Origin: Clostridiales bacterium
GTDB taxonomy: Bacteria; Bacillota; Clostridia; Oscillospirales; CAG-272
Length of the DNA: 64,000 nucleotides
Assembly: GCA_918290775.1 (NCBI GenBank)
Contig: CAKJZF010000012.1
Span: 11,226-75,225 of the forward strand
Direction: 5' to 3'
The position numbers and the translations under genes are program-made. Below the pieces are notes generated by a model. That model saw only the letters and a list, made by a program, of their open reading frames with translations. It was not told the origin of the DNA and ran no database searches. Numbering within the stretch: position 1 is the first letter of the stretch; each line of letters begins with the position of its first letter. Of this stretch, positions 2,017 to 51,619 are shown piece after piece.

Positions 2017-2054
2017 GAAATTCCCCGAAAACACGGTACTTTTCGGGGAATTTT
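2017..2054. terminator. bidirectional intrinsic terminator between convergent genes
   Basis: GAAATTCCCCGAAAA / TTTTCGGGGAATTT stem of about 14 bp with 8-nt loop CACGGTAC. A T-rich tract follows on the + strand. Confidence 0.7.
2034..2043 (+). repeat. copy 1 of over-represented 10-mer CGGTACTTTT (extended form AAAACACGGTACTTTTC, 2028-2044)
   Basis: Read directly: cgAAAACACGGTACTTTTCgggg. Forms the loop and right arm of the terminator hairpin, 14 nt after the stop of the + strand gene. Confidence 0.85.
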
Positions 2055-2070
2055 CTTATTTGCTTCTTTT

Positions 2071-2787
2071 TCAGCGCATTTCTTCGATGTGGTAGATGTA
2101 ATCCAGTGTGCGAAGCGCCTCAATTATTTCGGCGTGCGTTTTGTATTTCTTCAGCTCTTCGCTGCTGATGGAAATGGAGATGGAGTAAACGCTCAAACCG
2201 GAGTTATGATAGGCAGGGTTGGATTCAATGTCGTCGATCCGAAGCCCCAGCTCGCGGATGGTGGAAACAAAATTCGGCAGGTGCGCGGCATTTTTCAGTT
2301 CCAGATGAACCTCGAAATGGTTGGAACGATTCTTGAGAAACCGCTCAAACTTCGGAAAGAAGGAGAGCGATACCAACAGCGCGGCGAACAGGATGATGGT
2401 GACGGTGTAAAGCCCGGCGCCGATTGCAGACCCCAAAACAGCGCACGCCCAAAGCCCGACCGAGGTGGTTAATCCTTTGATCTGATTGCGTGAGCTGTAA
2501 AGAATGGAATTGACCGTGATGATCGAGATACCGACCAGCGTTGCCGCTGATAACAGGGGAATGGTAACCGCTGTCCCGTTCATCAAATAGAGGTCGATCA
2601 TCATCGACGCGGTGGAGGCAAGCGAAACCACAATAAAGGTTCGCAAACCGGCGGCGTGACGTTTGCTGGAGCGTTCACAGCCGAGAATGGCGGAAAGAAC
2701 CAGCGAGAGAAGGATTCGGAAGATAATGCGACCGGCAGGGCTGATCCAGCCGCTTTCCATCAGTTGAGTTGCAATGGGGTCAATCAT
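2071..2787 (-). CDS. MgtC/SapB family membrane protein
   Basis: 238 aa. Hydrophobic N-terminal half with GCERSSKRHAAGLRT, typical of the MgtC family, plus a soluble C-terminal domain. Confidence 0.85.
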   Translation of the reverse strand: MIDPIATQLMESGWISPAGRIIFRILLSLVLSAILGCERSSKRHAAGLRTFIVVSLASTASMMIDLYLMNGTAVTIPLLSAATLVGISIITVNSILYSSRNQIKGLTTSVGLWACAVLGSAIGAGLYTVTIILFAALLVSLSFFPKFERFLKNRSNHFEVHLELKNAAHLPNFVSTIRELGLRIDDIESNPAYHNSGLSVYSISISISSEELKKYKTHAEIIEALRTLDYIYHIEEMR

Positions 2788-2817
2788 AGTTTTTGATTCC
2801 TTTCATCATGTAGTGAT

Positions 2818-4290
2818 TCAGCGTCGCTTGCGCCGATGCTGTTGACTGTGGATCATGGCTTCCAAATGTTCTTCCGCCGCTTCGGTAAAGGCTTTTTCGT
2901 TTTCGGCGGTTATGGTTGGCGGAGGGAGTGTTTGCTGAATGGCGTGGATCCGTTCAATCAAAAGCTCCACAGGGGCTTTTTGCGTCCCATCCGGCGTCTT
3001 TTCCTCCACTTGAACGAGATCTTCCAGTTTATCGGAATAAGAACCTGAAAGGTAAAGCGCGGCTTTCGCCGTGGAAGGACCGATCAATTCATGGAGGACG
3101 CTTGCCGCGAGAACGATTGCCAGCAGAGCATCCGCCATCATTTTTCCGCTTTCATTCGGAATCGACTCAAATGATCGTGCGCCGAGCGTTGCAAGTCCGA
3201 TGGCAACACTGGATTGCGGGATCAGCGCAAGACCGAGATAGTTTCGCACCTTCGGACTGCGTCGCGACGCGAGCGATCCGAGAAACGCGCCGATATACTT
3301 GCCGAAAACGCGGAATACCAAATAGAGAATTCCAATCACGACGATGGGCATTGCGCCGAAAGCGTCCACACGACCGAAAAGGATTTTCATATTCAGGCTT
3401 GCGCCGGAGCGGACAAAATAGAGCAGGAGAAGCGGGGGACTGAAATAGTTCAGTTGCTTAAAGAGCTTATCGTCATCGGTGATGTTGACGTAAACGGTTC
3501 CCATCGCCATGCAGCCCAACAGCGGAGAAACATTGATGATGGTGCAGATGCTGCAGAACGCAAAGAGGAGACCGACAGAAATGATAAGTCTGTTATCAGT
3601 GGAGCGTTTTTTCGGCATCATGGATTTCATCAGAACGCCGAACAGGCAACCGACTGCCATCACCGCCAAATTGATCAGAATCGGTTTTGCAATGTCCCAG
3701 GCGTTGAAACTGTTTGTACCGGTTACAACCGACATGGCAACCGAGATGGCAATGCCGTAGGCAAAGAGACTGAAGATGTTATCGAGCGCAACCACCTGCA
3801 AAAGATTGGTCACAAACTCGCCTTTTGCCCCGGTTTGACGGATGGTCATCATGGTGGATGTCAGGGAAGAAACCGATGCAAGCGACGCCAAAACGATGGA
3901 AAACGCGAAATTGAGATGCAGGATCGCCCTTGCCAAAATGAACACCAAGACCGATGCGAGGCTTGCTTCCATGAGCATGATGACGACCGTTTTCGCGCCG
4001 CTCTGCTTGAGAACGGAGAAACGGAAAAATTCGCCGGTACTGAACGCAATAAACGCCAGCGCAATGTCCGGGATAAACCCCATGCCGCCGATCACGGCTT
4101 CCGGGACAAGGTTTAGCACAAAAGGACCGATCAAAATTCCGGCAATGATATAGGCGGAGACATTCGGCAGACGAAGCAGTTTGCCGATTCGCGTCATCAG
4201 AAAGCCGGCGAAAACCATGATCGCGATGGTGATGATCGTGGAGCTGATTGTAGGCAGCCCGAATAGCTTTTCTTGGAGAACGGACAACAT
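2818..4290 (-). CDS. cation:proton antiporter (CPA/Kef-NhaP-like)
   Basis: 490 aa with about 12 hydrophobic segments, Na+/H+ exchanger-type sequence and a hydrophilic C-terminal tail. Confidence 0.8.
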   Translation of the reverse strand: MLSVLQEKLFGLPTISSTIITIAIMVFAGFLMTRIGKLLRLPNVSAYIIAGILIGPFVLNLVPEAVIGGMGFIPDIALAFIAFSTGEFFRFSVLKQSGAKTVVIMLMEASLASVLVFILARAILHLNFAFSIVLASLASVSSLTSTMMTIRQTGAKGEFVTNLLQVVALDNIFSLFAYGIAISVAMSVVTGTNSFNAWDIAKPILINLAVMAVGCLFGVLMKSMMPKKRSTDNRLIISVGLLFAFCSICTIINVSPLLGCMAMGTVYVNITDDDKLFKQLNYFSPPLLLLYFVRSGASLNMKILFGRVDAFGAMPIVVIGILYLVFRVFGKYIGAFLGSLASRRSPKVRNYLGLALIPQSSVAIGLATLGARSFESIPNESGKMMADALLAIVLAASVLHELIGPSTAKAALYLSGSYSDKLEDLVQVEEKTPDGTQKAPVELLIERIHAIQQTLPPPTITAENEKAFTEAAEEHLEAMIHSQQHRRKRR

Positions 4291-4427
4291 GGCAACTGAA
4301 AAATTCCTTTCAAAAAAATCGAAAAAGGACTTGAAAATACGTCTTATATATGATATACTATTTAAACAATAAAGTCAAGTTATAATATTTTTGGTATCTA
4401 TAAATAATCTTTATCGAGGTAATGATC

Positions 4428-5327
4428 ATGCTGGATGTGAAAATGGAAACGCTTCTTGCCGTTGCAGAAGAGAAAAGCTTTACCAAGGCGGCGGAGCGCC
4501 TTTCGCTCACGCAACCCGCCGTTAGCCATCATATCCGCTCCTTGGAGGAGGAATTGGGGGTAAAGCTGGTGATACGGGGGCAGCATGAAATCAAATTGAC
4601 GCCGCAGGGCGAGATTGCCCTGCATTATGCTCGTCGCTTTCAGGCGATGTATACCAAGATGTGCCTGCGGTTGACCGATGCCGCCAAGCATATTACGAAC
4701 CTGCGCATCGGCATTACGCACACCGCAGAGAACAACCTGATCACCGAGGTTCTGGCAAAATACAGCAACGCGGAAAAGGGAACCACCATAACAATCATTA
4801 CTGATACGATCAAAAATCTTTATGATAAACTGGAGAATTATGAGCTTGACCTTGCGATTGTGGAGGGGAAACCGTCGGGAAACGATCTCTTTTCTCTGAT
4901 GCTGGATACAGACTACTTGGTTTGTGTGGTCTCCAACAATCATCCGTTGGCAAAGCAATCGATGGTCACATTAAACGAGCTGAAAAAAGAGCGCATGATC
5001 ATGCGGCTTCCAACGTCCGCAACGCGTGTGCAGTTTGAGGCGACGCTCGAGAGCATCAATGACTCCATCGACCATTACAATGTCATTCTCGAGGTGGATA
5101 ACATCGCAACCATCAAAGACCTGATCCGAAAGGACCTCGGCGTTTCCATTCTCGCAAAGAGCGCTTGCATGGATGAGCTTCGAAAAGGCAAAATCACGGC
5201 GCTTCCAATCGAAAATTTGAGCATGATCCGCGAAACAAACATCGTCTATCACAAGGATTTTGCGGATATCGACATTCTCAAGGACATTTCAAAGCTCTAT
5301 CAGGAATCCAAAAAACATTATAATTGA
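4428..5327 (+). CDS. LysR family transcriptional regulator
   Basis: N-terminal wHTH EEKSFTKAAERLSLTQPAVSHHIRSLEEELG. ATG 4428 is better spaced from GAGG than ATG 4422. Divergent from the antiporter gene, which is the classic LysR arrangement. Confidence 0.9.
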   Translation: MLDVKMETLLAVAEEKSFTKAAERLSLTQPAVSHHIRSLEEELGVKLVIRGQHEIKLTPQGEIALHYARRFQAMYTKMCLRLTDAAKHITNLRIGITHTAENNLITEVLAKYSNAEKGTTITIITDTIKNLYDKLENYELDLAIVEGKPSGNDLFSLMLDTDYLVCVVSNNHPLAKQSMVTLNELKKERMIMRLPTSATRVQFEATLESINDSIDHYNVILEVDNIATIKDLIRKDLGVSILAKSACMDELRKGKITALPIENLSMIRETNIVYHKDFADIDILKDISKLYQESKKHYN

Positions 5328-5331
5328 GCAG

Positions 5332-5361
5332 AGAACCCGTCGGCATCAACCGACGGGTTCT
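5332..5361. terminator. GC-rich hairpin shared by the convergent LysR-type gene and mnmA
   Basis: AGAACCCGTCGG / CCGACGGGTTCT 12-bp stem, 6-nt loop, no clear U-tract. Overlaps the last codons of mnmA. Confidence 0.5.
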
Positions 5362-6434
5362 GTTGATTGGATGATCCCTCCGCCGTAGACGATGTCTCCG
5401 TCGTACAGGACAACCGATTGTCCTTTTGTGATCGCTCGCTGCGGTTCGTCAAATACCACGCAAAGGGTGTCCTTGTTCGGTTGGGAAACGGTTGCCCATT
5501 GCTCCTGTTGGCGGTATCGCACCTTTGCCTTGAGCCGAATTTTCCCCTCAATCTGCGGTACGGCGATGAGATTGATCTCTTTTGCGGTCAATTCGCGCGA
5601 AAACAGTGCGTTGGTTTTCCCGAGAACGACTTGGTTATTCTCCATGTCCAGCCGGCAGACGTAGAGAGGCTCAGGCAGGGCAAGTCCCAACCCACGCCGC
5701 TGACCGACGGTGTAGCGGATGATGCCGCGATGTTTGCCGATCTTTTTCCCGTCCTCGGTCAGAAAATCGCCTTCCGGGTAAGTTTTTCCGGTGTAGCGTT
5801 CAACAAAGCTTGCGTAGTCGCCGTCCGGAACAAAGCAGATGTCCTGGCTGTCATGCTTGTGGGCGTTGATCAGACCGTTTTGTTCGGCAATCGCTCTGGT
5901 TTCCTCTTTGGTGAGGTTCTCAAGCGGGAAAACAGTGTTGGCAAGCTGTTCTTGAGTCATTGACCAAAGAACGTAGCTTTGGTCTTTGGTCGGGTCGGCG
6001 GCTTTACGAAGCAAAAACCGACCGCTTTGCGGATCCAAGGTGATGCCGGCATAATGCCCGGTGACAATACGGTCACAACCGAGTTCCTGTGCCCGACGGA
6101 AGAGCGCGTCAAATTTGAGAAACCGGTTGCAGTCAATGCAGGGATTGGGAGTTTTGCCGGCTTCATAGGCTTGAATGAAGCGGCGGATGACGCACTCCTC
6201 AAACCGATCCGAAAAATTGAACACATAGTAGGGAATTCCCAACCGCATGGCAACGCTTCGTGCGTCCTCGACGTCGTCAAGTGAACAACAAGAATGTTCT
6301 TTTTTTAAGCCGATCTCCTCGTTTCCGAAGAGTTTCATGGTCACGCCGACGCAATCATATCCGCGTTCTTTCATCAGAAGTGCGGCAACGCTGGAGTCAA
6401 CACCGCCGCTCATCGCGATCAAAACCTTTTCCAA
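5346..6434 (-). CDS. mnmA: tRNA 2-thiouridine(34) synthase MnmA
   Basis: 362 aa. PP-loop SGGVDSS near the N-terminus and full-length MnmA-like sequence. TTG start 7 nt after AAAGGAGG. Confidence 0.95.
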   Translation of the reverse strand: MEKVLIAMSGGVDSSVAALLMKERGYDCVGVTMKLFGNEEIGLKKEHSCCSLDDVEDARSVAMRLGIPYYVFNFSDRFEECVIRRFIQAYEAGKTPNPCIDCNRFLKFDALFRRAQELGCDRIVTGHYAGITLDPQSGRFLLRKAADPTKDQSYVLWSMTQEQLANTVFPLENLTKEETRAIAEQNGLINAHKHDSQDICFVPDGDYASFVERYTGKTYPEGDFLTEDGKKIGKHRGIIRYTVGQRRGLGLALPEPLYVCRLDMENNQVVLGKTNALFSRELTAKEINLIAVPQIEGKIRLKAKVRYRQQEQWATVSQPNKDTLCVVFDEPQRAITKGQSVVLYDGDIVYGGGIIQSTEPVG

Positions 6435-6475
6435 TCCGCTGCCTCCTTTGCCTGATCTTTGTTGTATGCAGAAAT

Positions 6476-6504
6476 ATTATACCTGCTTTTCAAGGTTTTG
6501 TCAA
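6476..6504 (-). promoter_or_regulatory. sigma-A promoter of mnmA (TTGACA-17-TATAAT)
   Basis: On the minus strand, TTGACA (6499-6504) and TATAAT (6476-6481) with an exact 17-bp spacer. Confidence 0.65.
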
Positions 6505-6548
6505 GAGGGAAAAGAAACGGCAAATTTTTGCTTTTAACTTGTATTTTA

Positions 6549-6558
6549 CGGTACTTTT
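6549..6558 (+). repeat. copy 2 of 10-mer CGGTACTTTT (form TTTTACGGTACTTTT)
   Basis: Read directly: gtaTTTTACGGTACTTTTcgc, in the divergent mnmA/pdaA intergenic region, about 45 bp upstream of the mnmA -35. Confidence 0.85.
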
Positions 6559-6653
6559 CGCAAAAAACAGACAATTTTGCATCTTTTGATCTGTTTTTTT
6601 ACGTCAAAAAAGAAAATAATATAAGCGAATCGAAACAAGAAAGGAGACGTGTT

Positions 6654-7460: not shown

Positions 7461-8146
7461 ACCAACGATTTTTACGGTATTTTACGGTATTTTTAGCTGT
7501 TTTGCTATTCTGTTCAGCCTTTCTCTCGCTTCCTGCCGCGGCGTTAGGCTATCGTTGGGTTCCAACCGAAACAAGCCGGATTGCACTGACGTTTGACGAC
7601 GGACCGCACCCGCGCCTGACATCCCGGATCCTCGACATTTTGGATCGTTATGGGGTTCGTGCAACATTCTTTATGATCGGGCAGAATGTTGAGTATTATT
7701 CCGACGCGGCGCGGGAGGTTGTCGCTCGCGGCCATGAGATTGGGAACCACACCGCCAATCACCGTGCCCTTCACGGACTCAGTGAAGGGCAAATGAAAGA
7801 GGAACTGAACAATTGCGCCGAAAAAATTGAAGAGATTTGCGGATGCCGTTCGCGGTTGTTCCGACCGCCCGAGGGCGTTGTTGATAAAACGGTTTTTCGC
7901 ATTGCATCTGAAGGGAATTATGAAGTAATCCTTTGGAGCATCGACACGCGTGATTGGGAGATCAAGGATGAAAAGGCGATTGTCAACCGCGTGATCAGCG
8001 CGGTGAAACCGGGCGACATTATTCTGATGCACGATTTTATCGGCAGAAACAGCAAAACGCCGGAAGCTTTGGAAATTCTGCTTCCAAAGCTTCTGGCGTT
8101 GGGATATGAGCCGGTTACGGTCAGCGAATTATTGGGGATCGGTTGA
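7457..8146 (+). CDS. polysaccharide deacetylase family protein (NodB domain)
   Basis: 229 aa. Signal/TM segment, then ALTFDDGPHP and GHEIGNHTANH NodB motifs. Start overlaps the pdaA stop by 4 nt. Confidence 0.85.
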   Translation: MNQRFLRYFTVFLAVLLFCSAFLSLPAAALGYRWVPTETSRIALTFDDGPHPRLTSRILDILDRYGVRATFFMIGQNVEYYSDAAREVVARGHEIGNHTANHRALHGLSEGQMKEELNNCAEKIEEICGCRSRLFRPPEGVVDKTVFRIASEGNYEVILWSIDTRDWEIKDEKAIVNRVISAVKPGDIILMHDFIGRNSKTPEALEILLPKLLALGYEPVTVSELLGIG

Positions 8147-9319: not shown

Positions 9320-9375
9320 GTATAATCATAATTATTTATATGGATTTTATACACTTTGAGAAGGGAAACATCTTC

Positions 9376-13219: not shown

Positions 13220-13229
13220 CGGTACTTTT
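13220..13229 (+). repeat. copy 3 of 10-mer CGGTACTTTT (extended 25-mer AAAACACGGTACTTTTCATAAAAAG, 13214-13238)
   Basis: Read directly. The element begins inside the TAA stop of the dehydrogenase gene and fills the 27-nt gap to the convergent peptidase gene. Confidence 0.85.
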
Positions 13230-14239: not shown

Positions 14240-14959
14240 ATGGCAAAACGCTTAACGCACCTCGGAGGTGTTTGCCTTTTGGGACTGTCGATCCTTTTTT
14301 TTGCGGTTTGCACACCGATTTCGATTTGGGCAAGCGGCGACGTGCTGATTGCGGAGTCAATTTTTCCAACGGTTTGGGATCTGTTTCAGAGTTTTGTGCA
14401 ATTTTTGGTTTATTGGGTTGTGACGGTTTTTTTGTCGCTTTTGATGATCCGAACCGCCTCGGTGCGTAGCTGTCTCCCGCTTTTGGGTTGGTATGCGGCG
14501 ACGGCGGTTTTGCGGATTGGGGGAAGCCTGATTCTCGGATCATTCATAACGGCGGACGGTTTTGGATCCGATGCGTTTTCGGACAATGTTTGGTATGCGC
14601 TGTTGGATCTTTTGTTGGATTTCATCCTTGTCGGCTTGGTGCTTTTGACTTTGTATTTGTTGATTTTCCGTAAAAGTACCGTAAAAAGCGATGATTTTCA
14701 TCTTCCGCCAAACAGTTTTTTCAAGCAGCCGACCCGCCTTCATGTTGCCGTTGCGGCGGCAGTTGCGATCCCGTCGGTAATTCGATTGATCGGGCGCATC
14801 CGATATGACATCGACTTCGGCGCACCGCAAAACACAGCGGATCTGCTCTGGATGGTCTTTTATTATCTTGCAGATCTGATTTCTGTTTTGATCGGTTATC
14901 TGACGGTTTTGTTGTTGCTGAAAAAGCTATCTAACCCGCGCGAAGGTGACGTTAAATGA
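14240..14959 (+). CDS. hypothetical integral membrane protein
   Basis: 239 aa with 5-6 hydrophobic segments. ATG preceded by GAAAGGACGG. No family recognised. Confidence 0.6.
   Translation: MAKRLTHLGGVCLLGLSILFFAVCTPISIWASGDVLIAESIFPTVWDLFQSFVQFLVYWVVTVFLSLLMIRTASVRSCLPLLGWYAATAVLRIGGSLILGSFITADGFGSDAFSDNVWYALLDLLLDFILVGLVLLTLYLLIFRKSTVKSDDFHLPPNSFFKQPTRLHVAVAAAVAIPSVIRLIGRIRYDIDFGAPQNTADLLWMVFYYLADLISVLIGYLTVLLLLKKLSNPREGDVK
14672..14681 (-). repeat. copy 4 of 10-mer CGGTACTTTT (minus strand reads TTTTTACGGTACTTTTACGG)
   Basis: Read directly, inside the CDS (codons F-R-K-S-T-V-K-S). CCGTAAAA is directly repeated 11 bp apart. Confidence 0.85.
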
Positions 14960-32627: not shown

Positions 32628-32694
32628 GAAATCAACTCCTTCCCATAACAGATGATATGCGAAGAGGAGCGATTTTAGCAGAAAATACGGAAAA

Positions 32695-32736
32695 ATACCG
32701 AGAAAAACGCCCGAACGGATGAACGGTTCGGGCGTT
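32695..32736 (-). terminator. intrinsic terminator of the clpC-like gene
   Basis: AACGCCCGAAC / GTTCGGGCGTT 11-bp stem. On the minus strand it is followed by TTTTTCTCGGTATTTTT. Confidence 0.8.
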
Positions 32737-36667: not shown

Positions 36668-37522
36668 TCATCCTTTCATCGTGTAGCCGATGCCGAGGCG
36701 ATTCAGAAAGAAAATTCCTGTGCCGAAGGCGATCAGCAGAAGCACGGCAAACACATCCGAAAATCGAAGGCGAAGCACCTTGAGGCGGGTTCTTCCCTCG
36801 CCCCCGTGATAGCAACGGCATTCCATTGCCGCCGCAAGTTCATACGCGCGGTTGAAGGCGGACACCAGCAACGGGATGAGCACGGGCAGAAGCGCCTTGG
36901 CGCGACGGATCAGACCGCCGCTGGTAAAATCGGCTCCGCGCGCTTTCTGCGCGTTCATAATCCGCTGGGTTTCCTCCATGAGCGTTGGGATGAAACGGAG
37001 CGCGATGGTGGTCATCATGGCGATGTCGTGCACCGGGACTTTGATCTTCTTGAGCGGGGCAAACAACCGCTCAAGCGCGTCGGTCAGGGCGATCGGCGTT
37101 GTGGTATAGGAGAGCAAAACCGATGTTCCGACGAGTAGGACAACGATCCTCAGAATCATAAAAAGTGCCGTCCAAAGCCCCTCTTCAAAGATCCGAATGC
37201 GCCAAACGTGGGTCCCCCAAAGCGGGATCTCCCAGGACGGCGTGAGCAGATGCTCGCCTTTGGTCATGAAGATGTTGATCAGAGATGTGAACGTGAGAAT
37301 CATGATCAGCGGTCGGATGGAACGCAGGATCATTCGGAGCGGAACGTGGCTGACCGCCGTCAGAAGGATCGCCGAGAGAACCAGCGCCGCAAAGCAAAGC
37401 GCGTTGCGGCAAAGAAAGGTGCAAACGATATATAAAACCGTCAGAATCACCTTTGCACGCGGATCCATCCGATGTATGGGCGAGTTTGCGGGATAGTATT
37501 GCCCGAAAGCGATGCTTTTCAT
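36668..37522 (-). CDS. ecfT: energy-coupling factor transporter transmembrane subunit EcfT
   Basis: 284 aa. CbiQ-family membrane protein directly downstream of two ECF ATPase genes. Confidence 0.92.
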   Translation of the reverse strand: MKSIAFGQYYPANSPIHRMDPRAKVILTVLYIVCTFLCRNALCFAALVLSAILLTAVSHVPLRMILRSIRPLIMILTFTSLINIFMTKGEHLLTPSWEIPLWGTHVWRIRIFEEGLWTALFMILRIVVLLVGTSVLLSYTTTPIALTDALERLFAPLKKIKVPVHDIAMMTTIALRFIPTLMEETQRIMNAQKARGADFTSGGLIRRAKALLPVLIPLLVSAFNRAYELAAAMECRCYHGGEGRTRLKVLRLRFSDVFAVLLLIAFGTGIFFLNRLGIGYTMKG

Positions 37523-38478
37523 GTAAGATTTCCTTTTTGAGACTGATAATACCGTTTCAGAATTTCAACGGCACGGTCAACCGTGTAAACGTTCTCGGGA
37601 ATGTCGATTCCCATCTTGCGCAAGCGGCGCATGAGTTGCGTGATCTGCGGAATATCCAGCCCGACCTCATCCAGCATGGAAACTTTGGAAAAAACCTCCT
37701 CGCAAGTACCCGCGGCAATCACCTTGGATTGCGACAGCACCACCATGTCGTCGCAATATTCCGCCATATCCTCCATACTGTGGCTGACAATGATGACAGA
37801 AGATGCGGTTGAGCGCTGATAGCGACGGATCTCCTCAAAAATCTGTTCTCTCCCGATCGGATCCAGCCCGGCGGCGGGTTCGTCGAGAACCAACACCTCC
37901 GGCTTCATGGCGATGACTCCGGCAATGGCAACCCGCCGCTTCTGCCCGCCTGAAAGATCAAACGGTGATTTTTCCAGTAAGCTCTCATCCAAACCGCTGA
38001 ATCTTGCCGCTTCGAGAACGCGCTCTCGAATTTCCTCGTCGGAAAGCCCCATGTTCTTCGGTCCATAGGCAATATCTTTGAAAACCGTCTCTTCAAAAAG
38101 CTGATATTCCGGATATTGCATGACAAGACCGACGCGGAAACAGAGACGGCGTTTTCTCGCCTCAACCTCTTTCCGAATCGCCTTTTTCGCGGTACTTTTG
38201 CGCAAATTCCGGTATTCCGGAAGCGTTAACCATGTTTTATAAAGTTCTTTTGCCGTGCTGTTGACGTCATATCCGTCCAAGAACACGTTTCCGCTTGTCG
38301 GCTTGGAAAGCCCGTTGAGGAGCATCATCATGGTGGACTTCCCGGATCCGGTATGTCCGATGACGCCCGTGATCCGACTCGCGCCGATATGAACGGTCAC
38401 ATCGTCAAGCGCCTGATGCTCAAAAGGAGTTCCCGCACTGTAGGTAAAGCTGACATGATCCAAATGGATTTTATCCAT
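37519..38478 (-). CDS. ecfA2: energy-coupling factor transporter ATPase (EcfA2)
   Basis: ABC ATPase with Walker A GHTGSGKST, signature LSGGQKRR and Walker B VLVLDEP. Carries a K/R-rich segment between Walker A and the Q-loop. Confidence 0.92.
   Translation of the reverse strand: MDKIHLDHVSFTYSAGTPFEHQALDDVTVHIGASRITGVIGHTGSGKSTMMMLLNGLSKPTSGNVFLDGYDVNSTAKELYKTWLTLPEYRNLRKSTAKKAIRKEVEARKRRLCFRVGLVMQYPEYQLFEETVFKDIAYGPKNMGLSDEEIRERVLEAARFSGLDESLLEKSPFDLSGGQKRRVAIAGVIAMKPEVLVLDEPAAGLDPIGREQIFEEIRRYQRSTASSVIIVSHSMEDMAEYCDDMVVLSQSKVIAAGTCEEVFSKVSMLDEVGLDIPQITQLMRRLRKMGIDIPENVYTVDRAVEILKRYYQSQKGNLT
38190..38199 (+). repeat. copy 5 of 10-mer CGGTACTTTT (TTTTTCGCGGTACTTTTGCGCAA)
   Basis: Read directly, antisense to ecfA2 codons R-K-S-T-A-K-K. 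Immediately followed by a TTGCGCAA palindrome (38197-38204). Confidence 0.85.
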
Positions 38479-40774: not shown

Positions 40775-40816
40775 GTGAACCGCCGCCCCTTTCGCTTTTA
40801 TAATATTCCAAATTAC

Positions 40817-40845
40817 ATTATATCACAAACTGCCCTGTAAGTCAA
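40817..40845 (-). promoter_or_regulatory. sigma-A promoter of ruvC (TTGACT-17-TATAAT, TGa extended -10)
   Basis: On the minus strand, TTGACT (40840-40845) and TGTGATATAAT ending at 40817. Confidence 0.65.
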
Positions 40846-40895
40846 ACAATTCTTTTCATTTTTGCAAAAATCCTAAAAAAATAACAATTTTATGG

Positions 40896-40924
40896 TTTAC
40901 AGATCGCGTTTTTTGTGATATAAT
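40896..40924 (+). promoter_or_regulatory. sigma-A promoter of the DUF951-yfhO-ruvAB unit (TTTACA-17-TATAAT, extended -10)
   Basis: TTTACA 40896-40901 and TGTGATATAAT ending at 40924. Same TTTGTGATATAAT core as the divergent ruvC promoter. Confidence 0.65.
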
Positions 40925-40962
40925 TTAAGATGGTTTTTTATATACCGAGAAAGGTGAATGTC

Positions 40963-41163: not shown

Positions 41164-44100
41164 ACGATATAACGCGGCGGGATCGCAAACGGGGATTTCT
41201 TTCCTTTTTGCGCGGAAACGGTTATCTGCTGTTGTGTATGGTGATTCCCGTTCTTCTCGTCTATCTGATCTATCTCGCACGTGGGATTCATCCGTGCGGG
41301 GACGGTTGCGTGCTTGTGCTGGATCTGACCGGGCAATACGTTTGGTTCTTTGAAGCGCTTCGCAATTTTGTCCGTGGGGACGGAAGTTTGCTTTATTCGT
41401 TTGAGCGTGCGCTCGGCGGTGAATTTCTCGGGATCTATGCCTATTACCTTGCAAGCCCATTTTCCTATTTGGTCTGCCTGTTTCCGAAAACCAAAATGCT
41501 GGAGGCTCTGCTTGCGCTTTTCCTGCTGAAAACGGCAATCTGCGGCGGCACGTTCGGCTTCTACATGAAAAAGACCGCACTGACGAGAAGCCGCGTTGCC
41601 GCGGTCATATTCTCGGTCTGCTATGCGGTTTCCAGTTATGCGATCGTGCAGCAGCACAACACCATGTGGATCGACGCGATGATGTGGCTCCCGCTGATTA
41701 CCCTCGGTATAGAAGAACTGATTCGCCACGGCAAATTCAAACTTTATACGTTTTTGCTTGCGGTCACGCTCTTCAGCAACTTCTATATTGGATATATGGT
41801 CTGCTTTTGGTGCGGGATCTACTTTCTCCTGTTCTACCTTGCGCACGGCGGCAAGGACGGCGACAACAACCCGCTCGGCGAACGGCTGCATTTTCTGAAA
41901 TCGCTTTTGCGGATGGTGTTTTTCTCGCTTCTCGCAGTCGGTATGGCGGCAATGATCCTGCTTGGCGCGTATTACTCGCTCAATTTCGGAAAAACAACCT
42001 TCTCCACCGCAAAATGGGAATGGTTTACCAACTTCGACTTTTTGGATCTCTTCTATAAATTCCTTCCCGGTTCCTACGACACCGTTCGCCCGGACGGATA
42101 CCCCTTCGTTTATTGCGGTGTTCTGACGCTTCTTCTCGTTCCCGCTTATTTCTACTCGAAAAAATACACGATGCGGCGCAAGATCTGCTCGGCGGTATTG
42201 GTGCTGTTCTTCGTTGTGAGCTTCTCTCTCTCGGTTTTCGATTTGATCTGGCACGGCTTCCAACTTCCCAACTGGCTGAACCACCGCTACAGCTTTATGC
42301 TCTGCTTTTACCTTTGCGTTTTGGCTTGCAGGGCGCTGGAGGAATTGGAGACCTTCTCGCTCAAGCTCGTGCTCGGCGTCGGCGGTTTGATTGCAATTTT
42401 TACGGTACTTTTGCAGAAATTTACCGATATTGCCCACACCGATCCGAAGGATTTTTCCTGTATTTGGTTCACGCTTGCCTGTTTGATCGTGTATCTTTCG
42501 ATTCTCGGAATCTCGCGTTCCGGCGTTCGGAAAAAGCAGGTTGCGAGCATTGCCCTGTTGGTTGCCGTTTGCGTTGAGACCTTTGTGAACGGGTTGCTCA
42601 ACATGAACGCGTTGGACGAGGATGTTGCCTACACCAAATACAGCTACTACAACAATTTTCTTGCCAAAACCCGCCCGCTTGTGGAAGAGGTTCAGGCAGA
42701 GGACGCCTCTTTTTACCGCATGGAAAAGACCTACTTTCGTAAGGTGAACGACAACATGGGCTTGGAGATGCGCGGACTTTCCGGTTCAACTTCCACACTG
42801 AATCAGGAAACCATTCTGTTTTTGGACAAGATGGGCTATGCCTCCCGGTCGCATTGGTCAAAATATGTCGGCGGCACGCCGGTCAATGATTCTCTGCTCG
42901 GACTGAAATATATTCTTTCCGATAATTCCATTTACGGAAACTATTATGAAGTGTTCAAGACCGACGAGGTAAACGGCTACACTGCCTATCGCAACCCCTA
43001 TGCGCTCTCGATTGCCTATGGCGTTGACGACGCGCTTTTGGAATTTCCGCTTGGCTATTCCGCGAGCGATGAGGAAGCCGCCGATGACAAAAAAACAAGC
43101 CCGATTGCCAATGCCGTCAGCGCGGTCAAAGCGACGCTCAACAAATGGTTTGATATTGACGAAACGGTTCGCGGGGACAACTATGTGGATGCGTATGACA
43201 GCCCGTTTGAACGCCTCAACGCCATGGTAACGGCGATGCTCGGCGAGGAGGAGACCGTACAGGTGTTTGTTCCGATTCCGCTTTCCGGTCGCGTCACCAC
43301 AAGCAATCTGGAACGCCCATGGTCAGGCGAGGGACATTCCTGCTATGACAAGACCGACAGTTCGCTTTCTTCCTCCGTGACAGCAACCATTGAAATGCCT
43401 GTGAGCGGAGAACTGTATTTCTACCAGCCAACGCGCTTCCCGCGCGAAATTTCGCTCGAGCTGACCGACAAGACCGATGATATCAGCAAAAAATATGACC
43501 GTTTCGGCGGAAGCGAAACAACCCGCATCATCTCGCTCGGCAATCAGACGGAAGGTCACAAACTCTCGCTCAAAATGACACTGGAGGCTTCTAACCTCTA
43601 TTACCTGAAGGATGCCGACTGGTTCTATTACATTGATTGGGATGTGTTTGAAGACGTCATGACGCGCCTTGCCTCCGATCAATTCCAAATCGAAAAATTC
43701 ACCGAGGATTCCTTTACCGGAAGCCTGACAACATCCCAAAGCGACGAACTGATCCTGACGACGCTTGCATTTGACAAGGGCTGGAAGATCACGGTGGACG
43801 GTCAGCGAGCGGAGCCTGTGAAAGCGCTTGGATCCCTTGTTGCGTTCCGCGTTTCGGGAGAAGCCGGAACGCATACGGTCAAGATGGTCTATCGCCCCAA
43901 TACCTTTGTTGCGGGGTCAATTATATCCTGTATCTCGGTATTGCTGTTCGTTGTTTTGGCGTCGTTGTCCCCGCTGTTGCGCAAGGTCCCGGTTTTGCGC
44001 AGTTTGGTTTCGGTACCGATTCGGGAGAGAAAGCCGAAGCCATCCGAGAGCAAAGCGCCGGTGCCGCAGGAAGTCAAGGACCCGTCTCCTCCGGCATCTT

Positions 44101-44236: not shown

Positions 44237-44860
44237 ATGTTTTATTACCTCTGCGGAAAACTCACTCATTTGGAACCCGGAGTCGCCGTGATCGACTGCG
44301 GCGGAGTCGGCTATAAGCTCTCCATCAGCGGAACGACTTATGATGCCATGCCGCCGAATCGCTCCGTTTCCGAGCCGCCGATCGTCAAACTCTACACACA
44401 TCTTTCCGTTCGCGAGGATGACATTGAACTGTTTGGATTCATGAAGCAGACCGAGCTGGCAACCTTTAAGCTCCTTCTGACCGTTTCCGGGGTCGGACCC
44501 AAGGCGGCGCTCTCGATTCTGAGCTCCATGACTCCTGAAAAATTTGCGATCGCGGTTTGTACCGATGACAAAAAGACCATCGCGAAAGCGAATGGAATCG
44601 GACCCAAAACGGCGGCGCGTGTGATTTTGGAGCTGAAGGACAAACTGATGAAGGAATCCGACGGCAAGCTTGAGATGACCGCTTCCCCGTCTACGCCTGC
44701 AACTGGTGAGCGGAGCGCGTTGAGCGAGGCGATCGACGCGCTGATCGTTTTGGGCTATTCCCGTGCCGAAGCCATGACAGCCTTGAAAGACATTGACGTT
44801 TCCAAAACCGAGCTGCAGGAGATGATCCGCCTTGCGCTCAAAAAGCTGATGCGCCCTTGA
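44237..44860 (+). CDS. ruvA: Holliday junction branch migration complex subunit RuvA
   Basis: 207 aa from ATG 44237 (AAAAGGAG RBS). MFYYLCGKL... followed by HhH motifs GVGPKAAL and GIGPKTA. Confidence 0.94.
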   Translation: MFYYLCGKLTHLEPGVAVIDCGGVGYKLSISGTTYDAMPPNRSVSEPPIVKLYTHLSVREDDIELFGFMKQTELATFKLLLTVSGVGPKAALSILSSMTPEKFAIAVCTDDKKTIAKANGIGPKTAARVILELKDKLMKESDGKLEMTASPSTPATGERSALSEAIDALIVLGYSRAEAMTALKDIDVSKTELQEMIRLALKKLMRP

Positions 44861-44884
44861 ATCCATCGGAAAGGATAAGCGAAT

Positions 44885-45982: not shown

Positions 45983-46038
45983 TACCGAGAAAACGACCGT
46001 TGCAAACAGTTTGCAACGGTCGTTTTCTCGGTACTTTT
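45983..46038. terminator. 23-bp perfect hairpin between ruvB and the convergent gene, ending in the CGGTACTTTT word
   Basis: TACCGAGAAAACGACCGTTGCAA (45983-46005), loop ACAGT, TTGCAACGGTCGTTTTCTCGGTA (46011-46033), then CTTTT. Confidence 0.8.
46029..46038 (+). repeat. copy 7 of 10-mer CGGTACTTTT (TTTTCTCGGTACTTTT, 46023-46038)
   Basis: Read directly. Spans the end of the right hairpin arm and the T-tract after ruvB. Confidence 0.85.
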
Positions 46039-46046
46039 GAGGAAAA

Positions 46047-47153: not shown

Positions 47154-47195
47154 TTTCTCCTCCGTTCCGATCGGTCAACCTTTTGGGATAATCGG

Positions 47196-48689
47196 TCAGC
47201 ACCCGTGGAAGAGCCGTTTGCTCTCATAGGTGGGTTCGCACGTCAGGTTGATACCGAGCTTTTTGAGAGTATGTACGTCGTTTTCGGAAAGAATGACCGA
47301 AGAATGCATTTCACAGTGGCGAAGTTTCGGAAGCTGTTCCATTGCTTTTGCGGCGACCGGATCGGTTACCGCACAGATGGAGAGTGCGATCAGAACCTCG
47401 TTTGGATGCAAGCGCGGATTGTTGCTTCCGAGAATGCCGACTTTGAGGTTGGTGATCGGTTCCAAGATTTCCGGTGAAATCAGGTTGACGCGGTCGTCGA
47501 TGTCCGCCAGCACCTTGAGTGCGTTGAGCAACGCCGCAGACGCCGCACCGAGCAGACGGGATGTTTTCCCGGTCACCATCGAACCGTCCGGCAACTCAAT
47601 TGCAGCGGCGGGTTTCCCGGTTGCCTGCGCTTTTTCATTTGCCGCCACGCTGACTTTTCGATCGGTGACGTCCAGTCCTGCCGTTTTCATGATTAGTTCG
47701 AGTTTTTCTACATCGTGGCTGTCGCCGATGCCGCCCTCTTTCCGCCGGTTGCAGACAGCGGTGAAATAGCGGCGGATGATTTCCATGTTTGCCGCTTCGG
47801 AAACCGCGGCGTCGTCAAAGATGCAATTCCCCGCCATATTCACACCCATATCCGTTGGCGAACGGTAGGGGGACGAGCCGCTGATCTTTTCGAACATCGC
47901 GTTCAGAACGGGAAAGATCTCAATGTCGCGGTTATAGTTGACGGTGGTTTTTCCGTATGCCTCCAGGTGGAAAGGATCAATCATATTCACGTCGTTGAGA
48001 TCTGCGGTTGCTGCTTCATACGCAATATTGACCGGGTGCTTGAGCGGCAGATTCCAAATCGGGAAGGTTTCAAATTTCGCATAACCGGATTGAATTCCCT
48101 TCTTGTGGTCATGGTAAAGCTGGCTCAGGCAGGTTGCCATTTTGCCGCTTCCGGGACCCGGCGCGGTGACAACGACCAGCGACCGCGTGGTTTCAATGTA
48201 ATCGTTTTTGCCGTACCCCTCGTCGCTCACGATGCGGGCAATGTCCGAGGGATAGCCGGGGATGGAATAATGTTGATAAACCTTCACGCCGAGGGATTCG
48301 AGGCGCTTGCGGAATTTGATGGCGGCGGGCTGATCCTGCCAGCGCGTCAGCACCACGCTGCCGACATATAGCCCGAAGCTGCGGAATGCGTCGATCAGGC
48401 GCAGAACGTCCAAATCATAGGTGATTCCGAGATCGCCGCGAACCTTGTTCTTTTCAATATCGTTTGCGTTGATGGCAATGACGATTTCCGCCTGATCCTT
48501 GAGCTGAATCAGCATCCGGATCTTACTGTCGGGGGCGAAGCCCGGAAGAACGCGTGCGGCATGGTAATCGTCGAAGAGTTTTCCGCCGAATTCCAGATAG
48601 AGTTTCCCGCCGAACTGCGCGATGCGTTCGCGGATGTGTTCGGACTGCATTTTGATATAAAGGTCGTTATCGAATCCCTGCTTATACAT
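47196..48689 (-). CDS. DUF1846 (UPF0371) family protein
   Basis: 497 aa. N-terminus [19 protein letters not shown]...[22 protein letters not shown] is characteristic of the family. Confidence 0.8.
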
Positions 48690-48718
48690 GGTATACCTCT
48701 TTTCTGTTTCTCATTCGT

Positions 48719-50035
48719 TCAGAATATCAGACGGATTTCCCCGTCACGTTCGCTTCGGAGACCTGTTTCGTAAAATTGCTTCATTGCACCGACGAGATAA
48801 CCGATGTCGGCACATCCCGCGGTCTCAAATGCCGAATGCATGGAGAGCTGTGCCATGCCGATGTCAACGGTCATGAGCGGAACCTTGGTGTTTGAGATGC
48901 TTCCCAGCGTGGAACCTCCGCGCATATCGCTTCGATTCGCAAAATGCTGAACGGGAATGTTTGCCCGCCCGCAGATCTCCTCAAAAATCGCTTCCGACAC
49001 GCCGTCGGTCGTGTAGCGCTGTGCGGCGTTGGATTTGATCACGACGCCGCCGTTCAGATGCGGACTGTTTAAGGGGTCGCAAAGCTCGGGATGGTTTGGG
49101 TGCCGCGCGTGCCCGTTATCGGCGGAGACCATGAAGCCTGAAGCAAACAGTTGCCTTGCGTCGATTCCGAGTTGTTCGCAGATCCGATCTGTCACATCCC
49201 GCAGAAACGCGGAACCGGCTCCCTGTTTGGTGTCGCTTCCGGTCTCTTCGTTGTCGGCGCTGAAATAGAGATCCAACGAATCGCTTCGCGGAGCGGATTT
49301 CAAAAAGCCCTGCAAGGTTCCGTAGGCGCACATCAAATTGTCGATGCGGGGAGATGAGAAAAATTCATCCTGCGCACCCCAAATACATCCGTTCATCCGG
49401 TTGTAAACAAACAGATCGCCTCCGGCAATCTCCTCCGGCTGACATCCGACCGATTCCGCAAGCAGTTGCTTCAACGCGCCCTTCGCCCCGGATCCGCCGA
49501 AAAGCGGCATGAGATCCACCGCGGGGTTGAAGGTATATCCGCTGTTTGCCTCGCGGTTCATGTGAATCGCAACGCTCGGAATCAGAACCAAATCACGGTC
49601 GATTTTTATCGTTTTGACCCAGAAAATACCGTCTTTTTTGAGGATAACGCGCCCGCCGACTGAAAGCGGACGGTCGAGCCATGTGGAGAGAATCGTTCCT
49701 CCGTAAACCTCGGTATCAAGCTTGAGATACCGATCGAAGGCGACCGATTCATAATTGCTTTTCAATTTGAACATGGGAGAATCGGTGTGGCTTGCCGAGA
49801 TCAGAATCTGACGGGCTTTTTTCTGCGGAATCCGAAAAGCGATAACCGAGGAAAGATTTCTCGTCAGATAGTAGCATCCGCCCGGTTTGAGCGTCCAATT
49901 CCCAGCTTCTTCCAACCGTTCAAATTCGTTTTTTTCCAAAATGCCGCCGATGTTTTCGACGGCGTGAAACGCCGTCGGACTTTTTCTGATGAAATCAATC
50001 AGTTTTTCGGTTTGTTTTTTTGATTCCGATGTCAT
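48719..50035 (-). CDS. M18 family aminopeptidase
   Basis: 438 aa. FIRKSPTAFHAV N-terminus, DNEETGS and HSAFE metal-site regions. Confidence 0.85.
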   Translation of the reverse strand: MTSESKKQTEKLIDFIRKSPTAFHAVENIGGILEKNEFERLEEAGNWTLKPGGCYYLTRNLSSVIAFRIPQKKARQILISASHTDSPMFKLKSNYESVAFDRYLKLDTEVYGGTILSTWLDRPLSVGGRVILKKDGIFWVKTIKIDRDLVLIPSVAIHMNREANSGYTFNPAVDLMPLFGGSGAKGALKQLLAESVGCQPEEIAGGDLFVYNRMNGCIWGAQDEFFSSPRIDNLMCAYGTLQGFLKSAPRSDSLDLYFSADNEETGSDTKQGAGSAFLRDVTDRICEQLGIDARQLFASGFMVSADNGHARHPNHPELCDPLNSPHLNGGVVIKSNAAQRYTTDGVSEAIFEEICGRANIPVQHFANRSDMRGGSTLGSISNTKVPLMTVDIGMAQLSMHSAFETAGCADIGYLVGAMKQFYETGLRSERDGEIRLIF

Positions 50036-50211
50036 CGTCCGATTTCCTTTCCGTTCAAGTCCTTAAAATAATTATAACACAAATGCTTCCAAAACACAAT
50101 CTTTTTTTTGATTTTTTTCGCGAAAAAATGCGCTCTCCAAACGGTTCTTCCAAAATGGGGGGATGTTTCAGAATTTGCGGTGGTAATTTTCTGTTTTTTT
50201 AGGTATTCCTC

Positions 50212-50240
50212 TTGCAATTTGGTGCCGTTTCCTTTATAAT
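50212..50240 (+). promoter_or_regulatory. sigma-A promoter of rhaA (TTGCAA-17-TATAAT)
   Basis: TTGCAA 50212-50217, TATAAT 50235-50240, 17-bp spacer. Confidence 0.6.
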
Positions 50241-50284
50241 AGATATAGAATCCCCTCTTCAGAGAGGAAAAACAGGAGGACGAT

Positions 50285-51538
50285 ATGAATCAGAAACAAC
50301 GCTATGAAGCGGCAAAGGAGCGTTACGCCGCGCTCGGAATCGACACAGAAGCAGCCATCCAAAAGCTCTCCGCGGTTTCGATCTCCATGCACTGCTGGCA
50401 AGGCGACGATGTTCACGGTTTTGAGAACAGCGGATCCCTGACAGGCGGTATTCAGACCACCGGTAATTATCCCGGCGTTGCCCGCAATCCCGAGGAGCTT
50501 CTGCGGGATCTCGACGAGGCATTCTCTCTCATTCCCGGCAAGCATCGCGTCAATGTTCATGCCTGCTACGGAGTTTATGAAAACGGAAAAGCCGTTGAGC
50601 GCGATCAGATCAAGCCGGAGCATTTCCGCCGCTGGGTTGACTATGCCAAGCAGCGCGGCTTGGGTTTGGATTTTAACCCTACCTTTTTCTCCCATCCCCT
50701 CTCCGAAAACGGAACGCTGACCAACCCGGATGAGCAGATCCGCGCTTTTTGGATCCGCCATGGGATTGCCTGCATTCGCATTTCCGAGTATTTTGCAGAG
50801 CAAACGGGAACGCCCTGCCTGATGAACATTTGGATCCCGGACGGATTTAAGGATATTCCCGCCGACCGTCTCGGTCCCCGTCAGCGTTACATGGATTCGC
50901 TGGATCAGATCCTCGGATGCGGCTATGACAAGAACAAGGTGCTTGTGACGCTGGAATCCAAGGTGTTTGGAATCGGTGTGGAGTCCTATACGGCAGGTTC
51001 CGGCGAGTTTGCGCTTTGCTATGCTATGACGCGTGGCATCGTTCCACTGATGGATAACGGTCATTATCACCCGACTGAAGTGGTTTCGGACAAGATTCCC
51101 GCGCTTCTCTGCTTTGCGCCGAAGATTGCTCTGCACGTGACGCGCGGCGTTCGTTGGGATTCCGACCACGTTGTGCGCTATGACGATGAGACGCAGGAGA
51201 TGATGAAAGAGATTGTCCGTTGCGATGCGCTCGACCGCGTGATTCTCGCAACCGACTATTTCGACGCTTCCATCAACCGCATCGCCGCATGGGTCATCGG
51301 AATGCGTTCGGTTCAGAAGGCGCTTCTCTCCGCGCTGCTTCTGCCGAGCAAAGATCTGAAAGCGCTGCAGGACAGCGCACGGTACACCGAGTTGATGGCA
51401 CGTCAGGAAGAATTCAAACTGATGCCGATGGGCGATGTTTGGGAGGAATTCTGCCGCCGCAACGGCGTTGACGGGACGATTGGCTGGTTTGAATCGGTCA
51501 AACAATACGAAAAAGAGGTTCTTTCCGGCAGAGCATAA
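50285..51538 (+). CDS. rhaA: L-rhamnose isomerase
   Basis: 417 aa. YAALGIDTEAAIQKL..SISMHCWQGDDV N-terminus and overall length match RhaA. Confidence 0.9.
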   Translation: MNQKQRYEAAKERYAALGIDTEAAIQKLSAVSISMHCWQGDDVHGFENSGSLTGGIQTTGNYPGVARNPEELLRDLDEAFSLIPGKHRVNVHACYGVYENGKAVERDQIKPEHFRRWVDYAKQRGLGLDFNPTFFSHPLSENGTLTNPDEQIRAFWIRHGIACIRISEYFAEQTGTPCLMNIWIPDGFKDIPADRLGPRQRYMDSLDQILGCGYDKNKVLVTLESKVFGIGVESYTAGSGEFALCYAMTRGIVPLMDNGHYHPTEVVSDKIPALLCFAPKIALHVTRGVRWDSDHVVRYDDETQEMMKEIVRCDALDRVILATDYFDASINRIAAWVIGMRSVQKALLSALLLPSKDLKALQDSARYTELMARQEEFKLMPMGDVWEEFCRRNGVDGTIGWFESVKQYEKEVLSGRA

Positions 51539-51551
51539 AATGCTAAACAGA

Positions 51552-51605
51552 CCAAAAGCGTCCGCCACACAGTTTGTGCGGCGGACGCTTTTGGGTTTTG
51601 CTTTT
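51552..51605. terminator. intrinsic terminator after rhaA (shared with convergent topB)
   Basis: CCAAAAGCGTCCGCCACAC / GTGCGGCGGACGCTTTTGG 19-bp stem with one mismatch, followed by GTTTTGCTTTTT. Confidence 0.85.
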
Positions 51606-51609
51606 TACG

Positions 51610-51619
51610 AAAAGTACCG
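51610..51619 (-). repeat. copy 8 of 10-mer CGGTACTTTT (minus strand 25-mer AAAACACGGTACTTTTCGTAAAAAG, 51601-51625)
   Basis: Read directly. Starts 9 nt after the topB stop, in the topB sense orientation. Confidence 0.85.

Follow-up and report, generated by a model that had tools for sequence, protein, structure and literature searches.

The DNA analysed here, which we call the window, is a 64,000-nt stretch of a contig (CAKJZF010000012.1) from a Clostridiales bacterium, and it carries eight exact copies of the 10-mer CGGTACTTTT, which we call the word. Counting both strands, six copies lie on the plus strand and two on the minus strand, where a first-pass annotation of the same DNA had placed them. 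Four sit at junctions where two genes converge: at 2034..2043 (+), between an open reading frame (ORF) for a pyrophosphatase-like protein (+) and MgtC (-); at 13220..13229 (+), in a 27-nt junction between the genes for a 2-hydroxyacid dehydrogenase (+) and an M14 peptidase (-) that is mostly filled by the word and its flanks; at 46029..46038 (+), between ruvB (+) and an Mbeg1-like gene (-); and at 51610..51619 (-), between a RhaA-like gene (+) and a topoisomerase gene (-). A fifth copy, at 6549..6558 (+), lies in the divergent region between mnmA and a polysaccharide deacetylase gene. The other three are inside genes, at 14672..14681 (-) in a multi-pass membrane-protein gene (14240-14959, +), at 38190..38199 (+) in an ABC ATPase gene (EcfA2-like, 37519-38478, -) and at 42403..42412 (+) in yfhO. 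The gene map combines ORFs, Pfam matches and the gene calls of sister contigs, and is partly hand-made. The uncultured host encodes PolC, which places it in the Bacillota, and its closest database relatives are rumen and gut metagenome-assembled genomes labelled Clostridia bacterium, Ruminococcaceae or uncultured Ruminococcus. We conclude from the evidence below that the word is a genuine sequence element, statistically robust and conserved in evolution, which fits no described family.

The word is strongly over-represented

The eight copies far exceed what the window's composition predicts, as the first-pass annotation had claimed. Dinucleotide shuffles of the window give an expectation of 0.03 copies; Markov models (orders 1 to 5) trained on the window give 0.07-0.41, a figure already inflated at the higher orders because the training sequence includes the word's own copies. 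No other 10-mer of the window has as many copies as CGGTACTTTT, and in probability it leads by a wide margin (Poisson p 7e-10 against the fourth-order model, ~4e-4 once corrected for all 10-mers); the runner-up that does not overlap it reaches p 4e-6, four orders of magnitude weaker. Other 10-mers attain raw counts of 6-7, and the frequent ATGAAATCAA and GAAAACGGAA proved to be ordinary coding words, not comparable signals. Nor are the copies pieces of one duplicated segment, since their flanks are unrelated and nothing is shared beyond ~25 nt.

CG precedes every occurrence of GTACTTTT in the window, and among its CGG-NNN-TTTT words TAC is a clear outlier. One-mismatch copies number nine, with ~3 expected by chance, and the mismatches tolerated are mainly C6T and T10C. 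One such copy, CGGTATTTTT (32691..32700, -), comes directly after a terminator-like hairpin and T-run and is followed by CCGTATTTTC. The C-to-T variants reported earlier do exist, but there are eight copies of CGGTATTTT and not six; they start at 7475, 7485, 21474, 25778, 32692(-), 33190, 49623(-) and 53868, and several are ordinary T-rich codons of membrane segments.

Two other repeats touch the word family. At 7475-7494, at the start of a second polysaccharide deacetylase gene, a tandem TTTTTACGGTATTTTACGGTATTTTT encodes F-L-R-Y-F-T-V-F-L, a signal or membrane segment; this is coding sequence that resembles the motif, not a clear member of the family. TACCGAGAAA (TTTCTCGGTA) has five copies (25773, 32696, 40943, 45983 and 46024) against 0.3 expected and overlaps the family, being a T-run, CT and then CGGTA; two of its copies form both arms of the ruvB terminator palindrome.

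The word lies within a ~25-bp unit

Aligning 18 copies, taken from the window and from loci of six relatives and in part mutually orthologous, gives a consensus unit of ~25 bp, W4-5 N2 CGGTAC TTTT S-N-N(N) AAAA(A)(G), or TAAAACACGGTACTTTTCGTAAAAAGT when written as a 25-mer. The upstream tract is a pure A-run or a pure T-run and never a mixture of the two. T-runs (T-type copies) occur at 6549, 14672, 38190, 42403 and 46029 and A-runs (A-type copies) at 2034 (AAAACA CGGTAC TTTT), 13220 and 51610, five and three copies respectively, just as the first-pass annotation had described. Absent from that description was the downstream part of the unit, N3-4 followed by an AAA(A) tract, which we found in seven of the eight copies. 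The type of upstream tract is inherited locus by locus across sister species. These properties of the tract suggest that what matters is the shape of the DNA and not the bases themselves.

A dyad test (CGGTACTTTT N1-6 AAAAGTACCG) found little but the A-tract in the right half, no second half-site and almost no sites with two imperfect halves, ruling out a palindromic operator of the form CGGTACTTTT-N3-4-AAAAGTACCG. Exact copies are about as numerous as one-mismatch copies and a second half is missing; thus, the signal is sharp and asymmetric. Once sites found only in sister lineages are included, strand use is 7 to 4 in the orientation of the window, with no polarity.

Copies concentrate at the ends of transcription units

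Intergenic DNA makes up 7% of the window and holds five of the eight copies (binomial p ~1e-4; ~21-fold enrichment), the number given in the first-pass annotation. The four copies at 2034, 13220, 46029 and 51610 occupy four of the window's eight convergent junctions (p 5e-4 relative to intergenic length, for junctions that number eight and total 474 nt). Only one intergenic copy of the five lies in a promoter region, at 6549, upstream of a consensus promoter of mnmA whose -35 hexamer is 44 nt away.

The three coding copies had been described as lying in different frames and orientations. This holds for the yfhO copy, which reads F-T-V-L-L in a membrane segment, but not for the other two, which both read AAA AGT ACC (K-S-T) on the sense strand: CGT AAA AGT ACC GTA (R-K-S-T-V, in a loop after a hydrophobic segment) at 14672 and CGC AAA AGT ACC GCG (R-K-S-T-A) at 38190. 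Relatives carry coding copies in MatE and P-type ATPase genes, and with one near-variant counted AAAAGUACCG is on the mRNA sense strand in five of six coding copies.

The word has no fixed place relative to RNA hairpins. At 2034, CACGGTAC forms the loop of an 18-bp hairpin (-24.6 kcal/mol, z -6.7) that has TTTT in its 3' stem, and at 46029 CGGTA is the base of a long terminator stem (-43.8 kcal/mol) whose partner arm, TACCG, lies at 45983-45987. The copy at 51610 follows the stop codon of the topoisomerase gene by 15 nt, with a bidirectional terminator 13 nt away, and at 13220 we found no significant hairpin (z -0.75 and +0.42). The word can thus be in a loop, at a stem base, 13 nt off, after a U-tract or without any hairpin, and on either side of terminators. 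No RNA structure is common to the copies, with 13220 and 6549 folding no better than shuffles, and a search of the window against Rfam 15 at gathering score returned only a transfer-messenger RNA (tmRNA) and one tRNA, with no match over any copy.

The exact word is kept while its flanks diverge

We read sister lineages around five anchor proteins; all clade sequence comes from one chromosomal neighbourhood of ~90 kb. Coding DNA of one sister locus (L284) is 78-85% identical to the window, and the dehydrogenase beside site 13220 has 72% protein identity in a sister in which the intergenic DNA is barely alignable. At orthologous intergenic positions, where the first-pass annotation had proposed to look, the exact word is nonetheless kept while the flanks diverge. 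Such conservation argues for constraint on the nucleic-acid word and not on a peptide, as that annotation had held.

Sister contig k141_170284 (loci L240 and L285) has seven copies of the word in 42 kb. Five of its seven assessable sites are exact (6549, 13220, 14672, 38190 and 46029), 42403 is a C6T variant and 51610 is absent. Site 13220 is kept in L285 and L288 as TAAAAC(A/G)CGGTACTTTTC(A/G)TAAAAAG, so that the whole 27-nt junction is preserved in three lineages. Site 6549 is kept in L285 as CGGTACTTTTCGCAAAAA, the longest identical intergenic block apart from the promoter hexamers, and is a C6T variant in L288; its spacing to the mnmA -35 hexamer differs by 10 bp, or one helical turn, between the window and L285. 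Among the coding sites, 14672 is kept in the orthologous gene of L285-L287, and 38190 is identical in L239, L240 and L248 while neighbouring codons show synonymous changes, the segment varying in the more distant L249. At the position of 42403 the sisters have TTT ACG GTA TTT TTG (C6T, Leu to Phe), and the copy in yfhO is probably a recent or chance one.

Other sites have changed or been lost. At the ruvB junction of L239 and L240 an unrelated hairpin replaces that of the window and AAAAGTACCG is retained; the word is absent there in L248, L249 and L251, and L250 has a palindrome of two CGGTATTTT copies. L239 and L240, in which the corresponding junction is much shorter, lack site 51610, and the junction of 2034 is missing in L288, the sole sister locus covering that region. 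Conversely, a decayed copy with two mismatches, CGGTATTTTC (53868..53877, +), between the terminator of a 135-aa gene and the ribosome-binding site of the topoisomerase gene, is an exact word in L239, L248 and L284. This position upstream of the topoisomerase gene is one of three with copies only in sisters, and in three sisters the word there comes after the preceding gene's terminator and its U-tract, and lies on the other strand. The other two positions are the DUF951/ruvC region and the inside of a MatE gene, ~1 kb past the right end of the window, where the copy is kept in three species and reads R-K-S-T-V. These comparisons show sites to be both conserved and subject to slow turnover through point mutation.

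The ~17 kb beyond both window ends hold one exact and two one-mismatch copies with proper flanks. The density is about 1 per 8-17 kb, and sisters have 1-4 copies per ~21-kb locus. In more distant relatives, stretches of 13-22 kb contain 0, 0, 1 and 0 exact copies. The word is also carried by L251, which has a different synteny, and by L270. With copies beyond the window ends and few in distant relatives, we take the enrichment to be a narrow-clade trait that reaches past the window.

Several neighbouring features bear on individual sites. A tmRNA gene lies at 613-1001, after smpB, and is followed by ORFs for a weak TfoX_N-domain protein (~1100-1437) and the pyrophosphatase-like protein (1649-2014). 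Both ORFs are lacking in L288 (12251-12871), where MgtC abuts the tmRNA gene; on this comparison the pair looks like an insertion beside ssrA, with copy 2034 at its edge. The RhaA-like isomerase gene (50285-51538, +) separates the M18 peptidase gene from the topoisomerase gene both in the window and in L239 and is missing in L248- and L284-type lineages; its presence creates the junction of 51610. The divergent region between DUF951 and ruvC (window 40775-40937; L239:17818-18020; L248 and L249) has two promoter-like blocks kept in four species: that of ruvC reads TTGACT...TATAAT, and that of DUF951, on the opposite strand, reads GGTTTACAG...TGTGATATAAT. In L239 the word comes immediately after the -10 box of the DUF951 block.

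Wider searches

We scanned GTDB species genomes with WWWWNACGGTACTTTTNNNRAAAW. Chance matches from AT-rich phyla were among the matches listed; L157 and L175 belong to the clade. A more specific scan of viral sequences gave seven matches, near a rough chance estimate, and no sign of phage enrichment. A metagenome scan returned 22 stretches, mostly from unrelated AT-rich contexts, among which only L270 looks like the clade. In L270 (1160-1240, GC 0.53) two units, CGGTACTTTTCCGAAAAAACG and CGGTACTTTTCGCAAAAAG, come after a terminator hairpin in tandem at a 21-nt period, and the first unit's A-tract doubles as the upstream tract of the second. A full-text literature search for the word found only primers.

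Two groups of matches were set aside as unrelated to the window. In L253 (2385-2440), L266 (the same as viral L292; 1440-1520), L260, L264 and L272, environmental or viral contigs of which at least L266 is viral, a palindrome GCGAAAGGTACC-ATATTT-CGGTACTTTTCGC stands between two same-strand genes and is tandemly duplicated with a 49-nt period in L266; this GCGAAAGGTACC-N6-CGGTACTTTTCGC palindrome may be an operator or terminator of a phage family. In L154, from Acidovorax, arrays of (A)AAAGTACCGT units with a 10-12-bp period lie 6.3 kb apart (1320-1350 and 7640-7710), one of them adjoining a P4-like integrase with an Arm-DNA-binding domain. These tandem AAAAGTACCGT arrays are probably arm-type att sites of a betaproteobacterial genomic island.

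Comparison with described elements

The word resembles uptake sequences in form and, in placement, repetitive extragenic palindromic (REP) sequences and the bacterial interspersed mosaic elements (BIMEs) that they make up. The DNA uptake sequences (DUS) of Neisseria and the uptake signal sequences (USS) of Pasteurellaceae spread by biased uptake and homologous recombination, occur at ~1 copy per kb and are ~2-fold enriched outside genes. Like these 9-12-nt sequences, the word is short, exact and asymmetric, has a GC-containing core and, as in USS, A/T tracts, occurs on either strand with no bias from the direction of replication, is accepted inside genes in certain frames, forms some inverted pairs in terminators and belongs to a narrow clade. 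Unlike them, it is about ten times sparser (8 in 64 kb) and far more confined to intergenic DNA and convergent junctions, with five of eight copies in 7% of the sequence in place of a modest excess; its host belongs to Bacillota, and we saw no receptor or competence genes in the DNA read. We know of no uptake specificity in Bacillota, and our literature searches found no uptake sequence in Gram-positives.

With REP/BIME elements the word shares a density of one per 8-17 kb, a location at transcription-unit 3' ends and between converging genes, lineage specificity and either orientation, occasionally in tandem. Unlike them, it is not a GC-rich imperfect palindrome, forms no stable hairpin of its own and lacks a GTAG head; no gene for a REP-associated tyrosine transposase (RAYT) was found among the window genes scanned, and, in place of a strictly extragenic distribution, three of eight copies lie inside genes, as do copies in relatives. 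By analogy with these elements the word could bind gyrase- or IHF-type proteins, or affect termination.

Other candidates diverge further. Chi, the FtsK-orienting polar sequences (KOPS), SpoIIIE recognition sequences (SRS) and polar Ter sites have a strand bias that flips at the terminus, and are excluded because the orientation of the word does not flip across a change of GC skew near 18 kb. The word has neither the profile of a transcription-factor operator (a dyad or direct repeat, degenerate and promoter-located) nor the fixed place in a hairpin with U-tract expected of part of an intrinsic terminator. We also compared by eye the sites for sigma-54, extracytoplasmic function (ECF) sigma factors, ComX-box, CodY, cre, FapR, SlmA, parS/NBS, UP-element and XerS/difSL in the forms that we take them to have, and none fits the conserved positions. 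USS/DUS, REP/BIME, Chi/KOPS/Ter, operators and terminators thus each differ from the word in at least one defining feature.

Two classes of protein site come closer in some respects. An IHF site consists of WATCAANNNNTTR and an upstream A-tract; it is degenerate, and IHF is not typical of Bacillota. Like IHF-type sites, the word joins an asymmetric core to A/T tracts at fixed spacing and is intergenic, also beside terminators, and the tract of the window copies seems to work as A or as T, which suggests shape readout; unlike those degenerate sites, the 10-mer is exact in most copies. The integrase arm-type sites of L154 consist of AAAAGTACCGT-like units, there with a 10-12-bp period, and since these arrays lie beside an integrase with an Arm-DNA-binding domain, a protein domain can read such a word. 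Unlike arm sites, the window copies are single, are spread over more than 50 kb in conserved housekeeping synteny and have no arm-binding-domain integrase beside them.

A putative protein site on duplex DNA

We tentatively favour the reading, possible rather than probable, that the word is the recognition site of a putative sequence-specific DNA-binding protein, aided by A-tracts and marking the ends of transcription units. The exact asymmetric core with A-or-T tracts and strand independence, the conservation of convergent and divergent copies without a common RNA fold, and the spacing difference of one helical turn at mnmA point to a duplex-DNA protein site. That three lineages retain the copy in the 13220 junction, where there is no hairpin, likewise counts for such a site. 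Of the three hypotheses put forward in the first-pass annotation, a protein site on bent A-tract DNA fits best, being sharp and asymmetric with no polarity and no RNA fold, although as a candidate only.

On this reading, CGGTAC would offer base-specific contacts to a putative protein of a narrow Clostridia clade, and the three A/T tracts would act through DNA shape, by a narrow minor groove and bendability. Selection would keep sites mainly at transcription-unit ends, above all where two genes converge, and coding copies would be tolerated only where a loop can read R-K-S-T. The bound protein would form a boundary, by stopping transcription from reading through or by serving as a topological or organisational marker. 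A boundary role, with a placement and density like those of enterobacterial BIMEs, is suggested by the concentration at transcription-unit ends. The over-representation, the ~25-bp shape, the bias in location, the conservation and the absence of polarity and of a shared RNA structure are observed; we infer both the binding of a protein and the effect of that binding.

Several observations weigh against this reading. With eight exact against nine one-mismatch copies, the sites vary unusually little for those of a regulator or nucleoid protein, and the class of sites with two degenerate halves was not found in the dyad test. Ordinary terminators stand at the convergent junctions that lack the word, and three of the four that carry it have a terminator too, so a roadblock is not evidently needed. 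Finally, since the sampling covers ~90 kb of one neighbourhood, the function may be specific to this region.

The alternatives explain parts of the same evidence. If the clade's uptake or recombination machinery preferred CGGTACTTTT with A/T tracts, biased uptake and homologous recombination would spread the word, and several features agree with this: a sharp asymmetric word with exact and one-off copies in similar numbers and A/T-tract flanks, both strands used, coding copies in tolerated frames, a dialect-like restriction to sisters (1-4 per ~21-kb locus against 0-1 in more distant relatives), inverted pairs that form terminator stems at 45983/46029 and in L250, change through single point mutations and, close to copy 2034, the weak TfoX_N-domain ORF. 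A density of 1 per 8-17 kb against ~1 per kb for DUS/USS, a ~21-fold against a ~2-fold intergenic enrichment with half of the convergent junctions occupied, the lack of Gram-positive precedent in the literature searches and the lack of competence genes in the ~150 kb of clade DNA read do not fit, and we regard the earlier uptake hypothesis as unlikely. Rather unlikely in our view is a 3'-UTR RNA element, the 3'-end hypothesis of the first-pass annotation, in which an RNA-binding protein or nuclease would recognise the transcribed word beside terminators and thereby influence 3'-end formation or stability. Here location is the argument, since the word is strongly tied to gene 3' ends and terminators, with four of its eight copies at convergent junctions, and AAAAGUACCG prevails on the sense strand of coding copies. 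A consistent relation to hairpins is missing, however; at tandem junctions the word comes after the upstream gene's terminator and is antisense in motif terms, divergent promoter-region copies are conserved as well, there is no Rfam match, and upstream A and T tracts are equivalent in duplex DNA but not in RNA.

A miniature dispersed repeat like REP/BIME, which a dedicated enzyme would insert at new intergenic positions wherever it is tolerated, would account for a density, lineage specificity and 3'-end or convergent preference like those of Escherichia coli BIMEs, for occasional tandem (L270, 21-nt period) and inverted copies, which BIMEs also show, and for a 27-of-28-nt match between the 51610 copy and an unrelated coding site in L251. 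It is improbable given a unit of only ~25 bp that is no stable palindrome, three of eight copies inside genes, no RAYT or other transposase among the window genes scanned, and gains and losses by point mutation rather than clean insertion or deletion. The word could also be a Ter-like or matS-like site for structuring the terminus region or arresting forks there, dense because the window may span the replication terminus, as the skew change and gene orientations suggest: GC skew is +0.03 to +0.18 up to ~18 kb and ~-0.02 after (changing near 16-19 kb), turning from positive to slightly negative, genes left of the window run rightward (L288) and most genes at 19-58 kb run leftward, and all data come from one neighbourhood. 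Yet orientations of + + + - on the left and + + + - on the right of the skew change are incompatible with a polar fork trap, the skew lacks symmetry and is weak on its right side, L251 with its different synteny and L270 carry the word, and no dif-like site was found in the window; we consider this quite improbable. A tyrosine recombinase of 352 aa (57420-58478), longer than typical XerC/D, is present in all sister loci, and the region upstream of it (58479-58638) has AATTTGTAAACTTTT, kept in L284 and loosely XerD-arm-like, which is unconvincing as dif. As for chance, a genome rich in CGG/CCG beside A/T runs and in T-rich membrane-protein codons might generate the word by composition, and CCGCAAAA and CCGTTTTC are indeed very common in the window, the yfhO copy and several C6T variants fall in membrane-segment codons, and other 10-mers reach 6-7 copies. 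Even the order-5 Markov model expects only 0.41 copies, however, the significance of the best independent 10-mer falls short by four orders of magnitude, the word, fixed beforehand, turns up in every sister lineage, at new positions too, and composition cannot yield exact conservation in diverged intergenic DNA; the sister-genome data effectively refute this explanation, to which we give almost no weight. The remaining probability lies with explanations outside those considered here.

Significance

Short exact words specific to a lineage have led to machinery before: Chi to RecBCD, KOPS to FtsK, DUS to ComP, and REP to gyrase, IHF and RAYT. To our knowledge no such genome word has been described for the large, mostly uncultured group of Oscillospirales-like Clostridia of rumen and gut. 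It is conceivable, if doubtful, that the element represents a new class of genome punctuation in Bacillota, either the first Gram-positive uptake or self-recognition sequence or a boundary-protein site at about half of convergent junctions that limits read-through or the spread of supercoils. In practice, the word could serve as a diagnostic signature for binning the clade and tracking it in metagenomes. As a real conserved signal that matches no described element, it is worth following up: a conserved 25-bp element at half of the convergent junctions is a handle for finding its putative reader protein, and it would allow tests of whether transcription-unit ends are marked by protein-bound DNA outside enterobacteria and of whether Gram-positives have sequence-specific DNA uptake.

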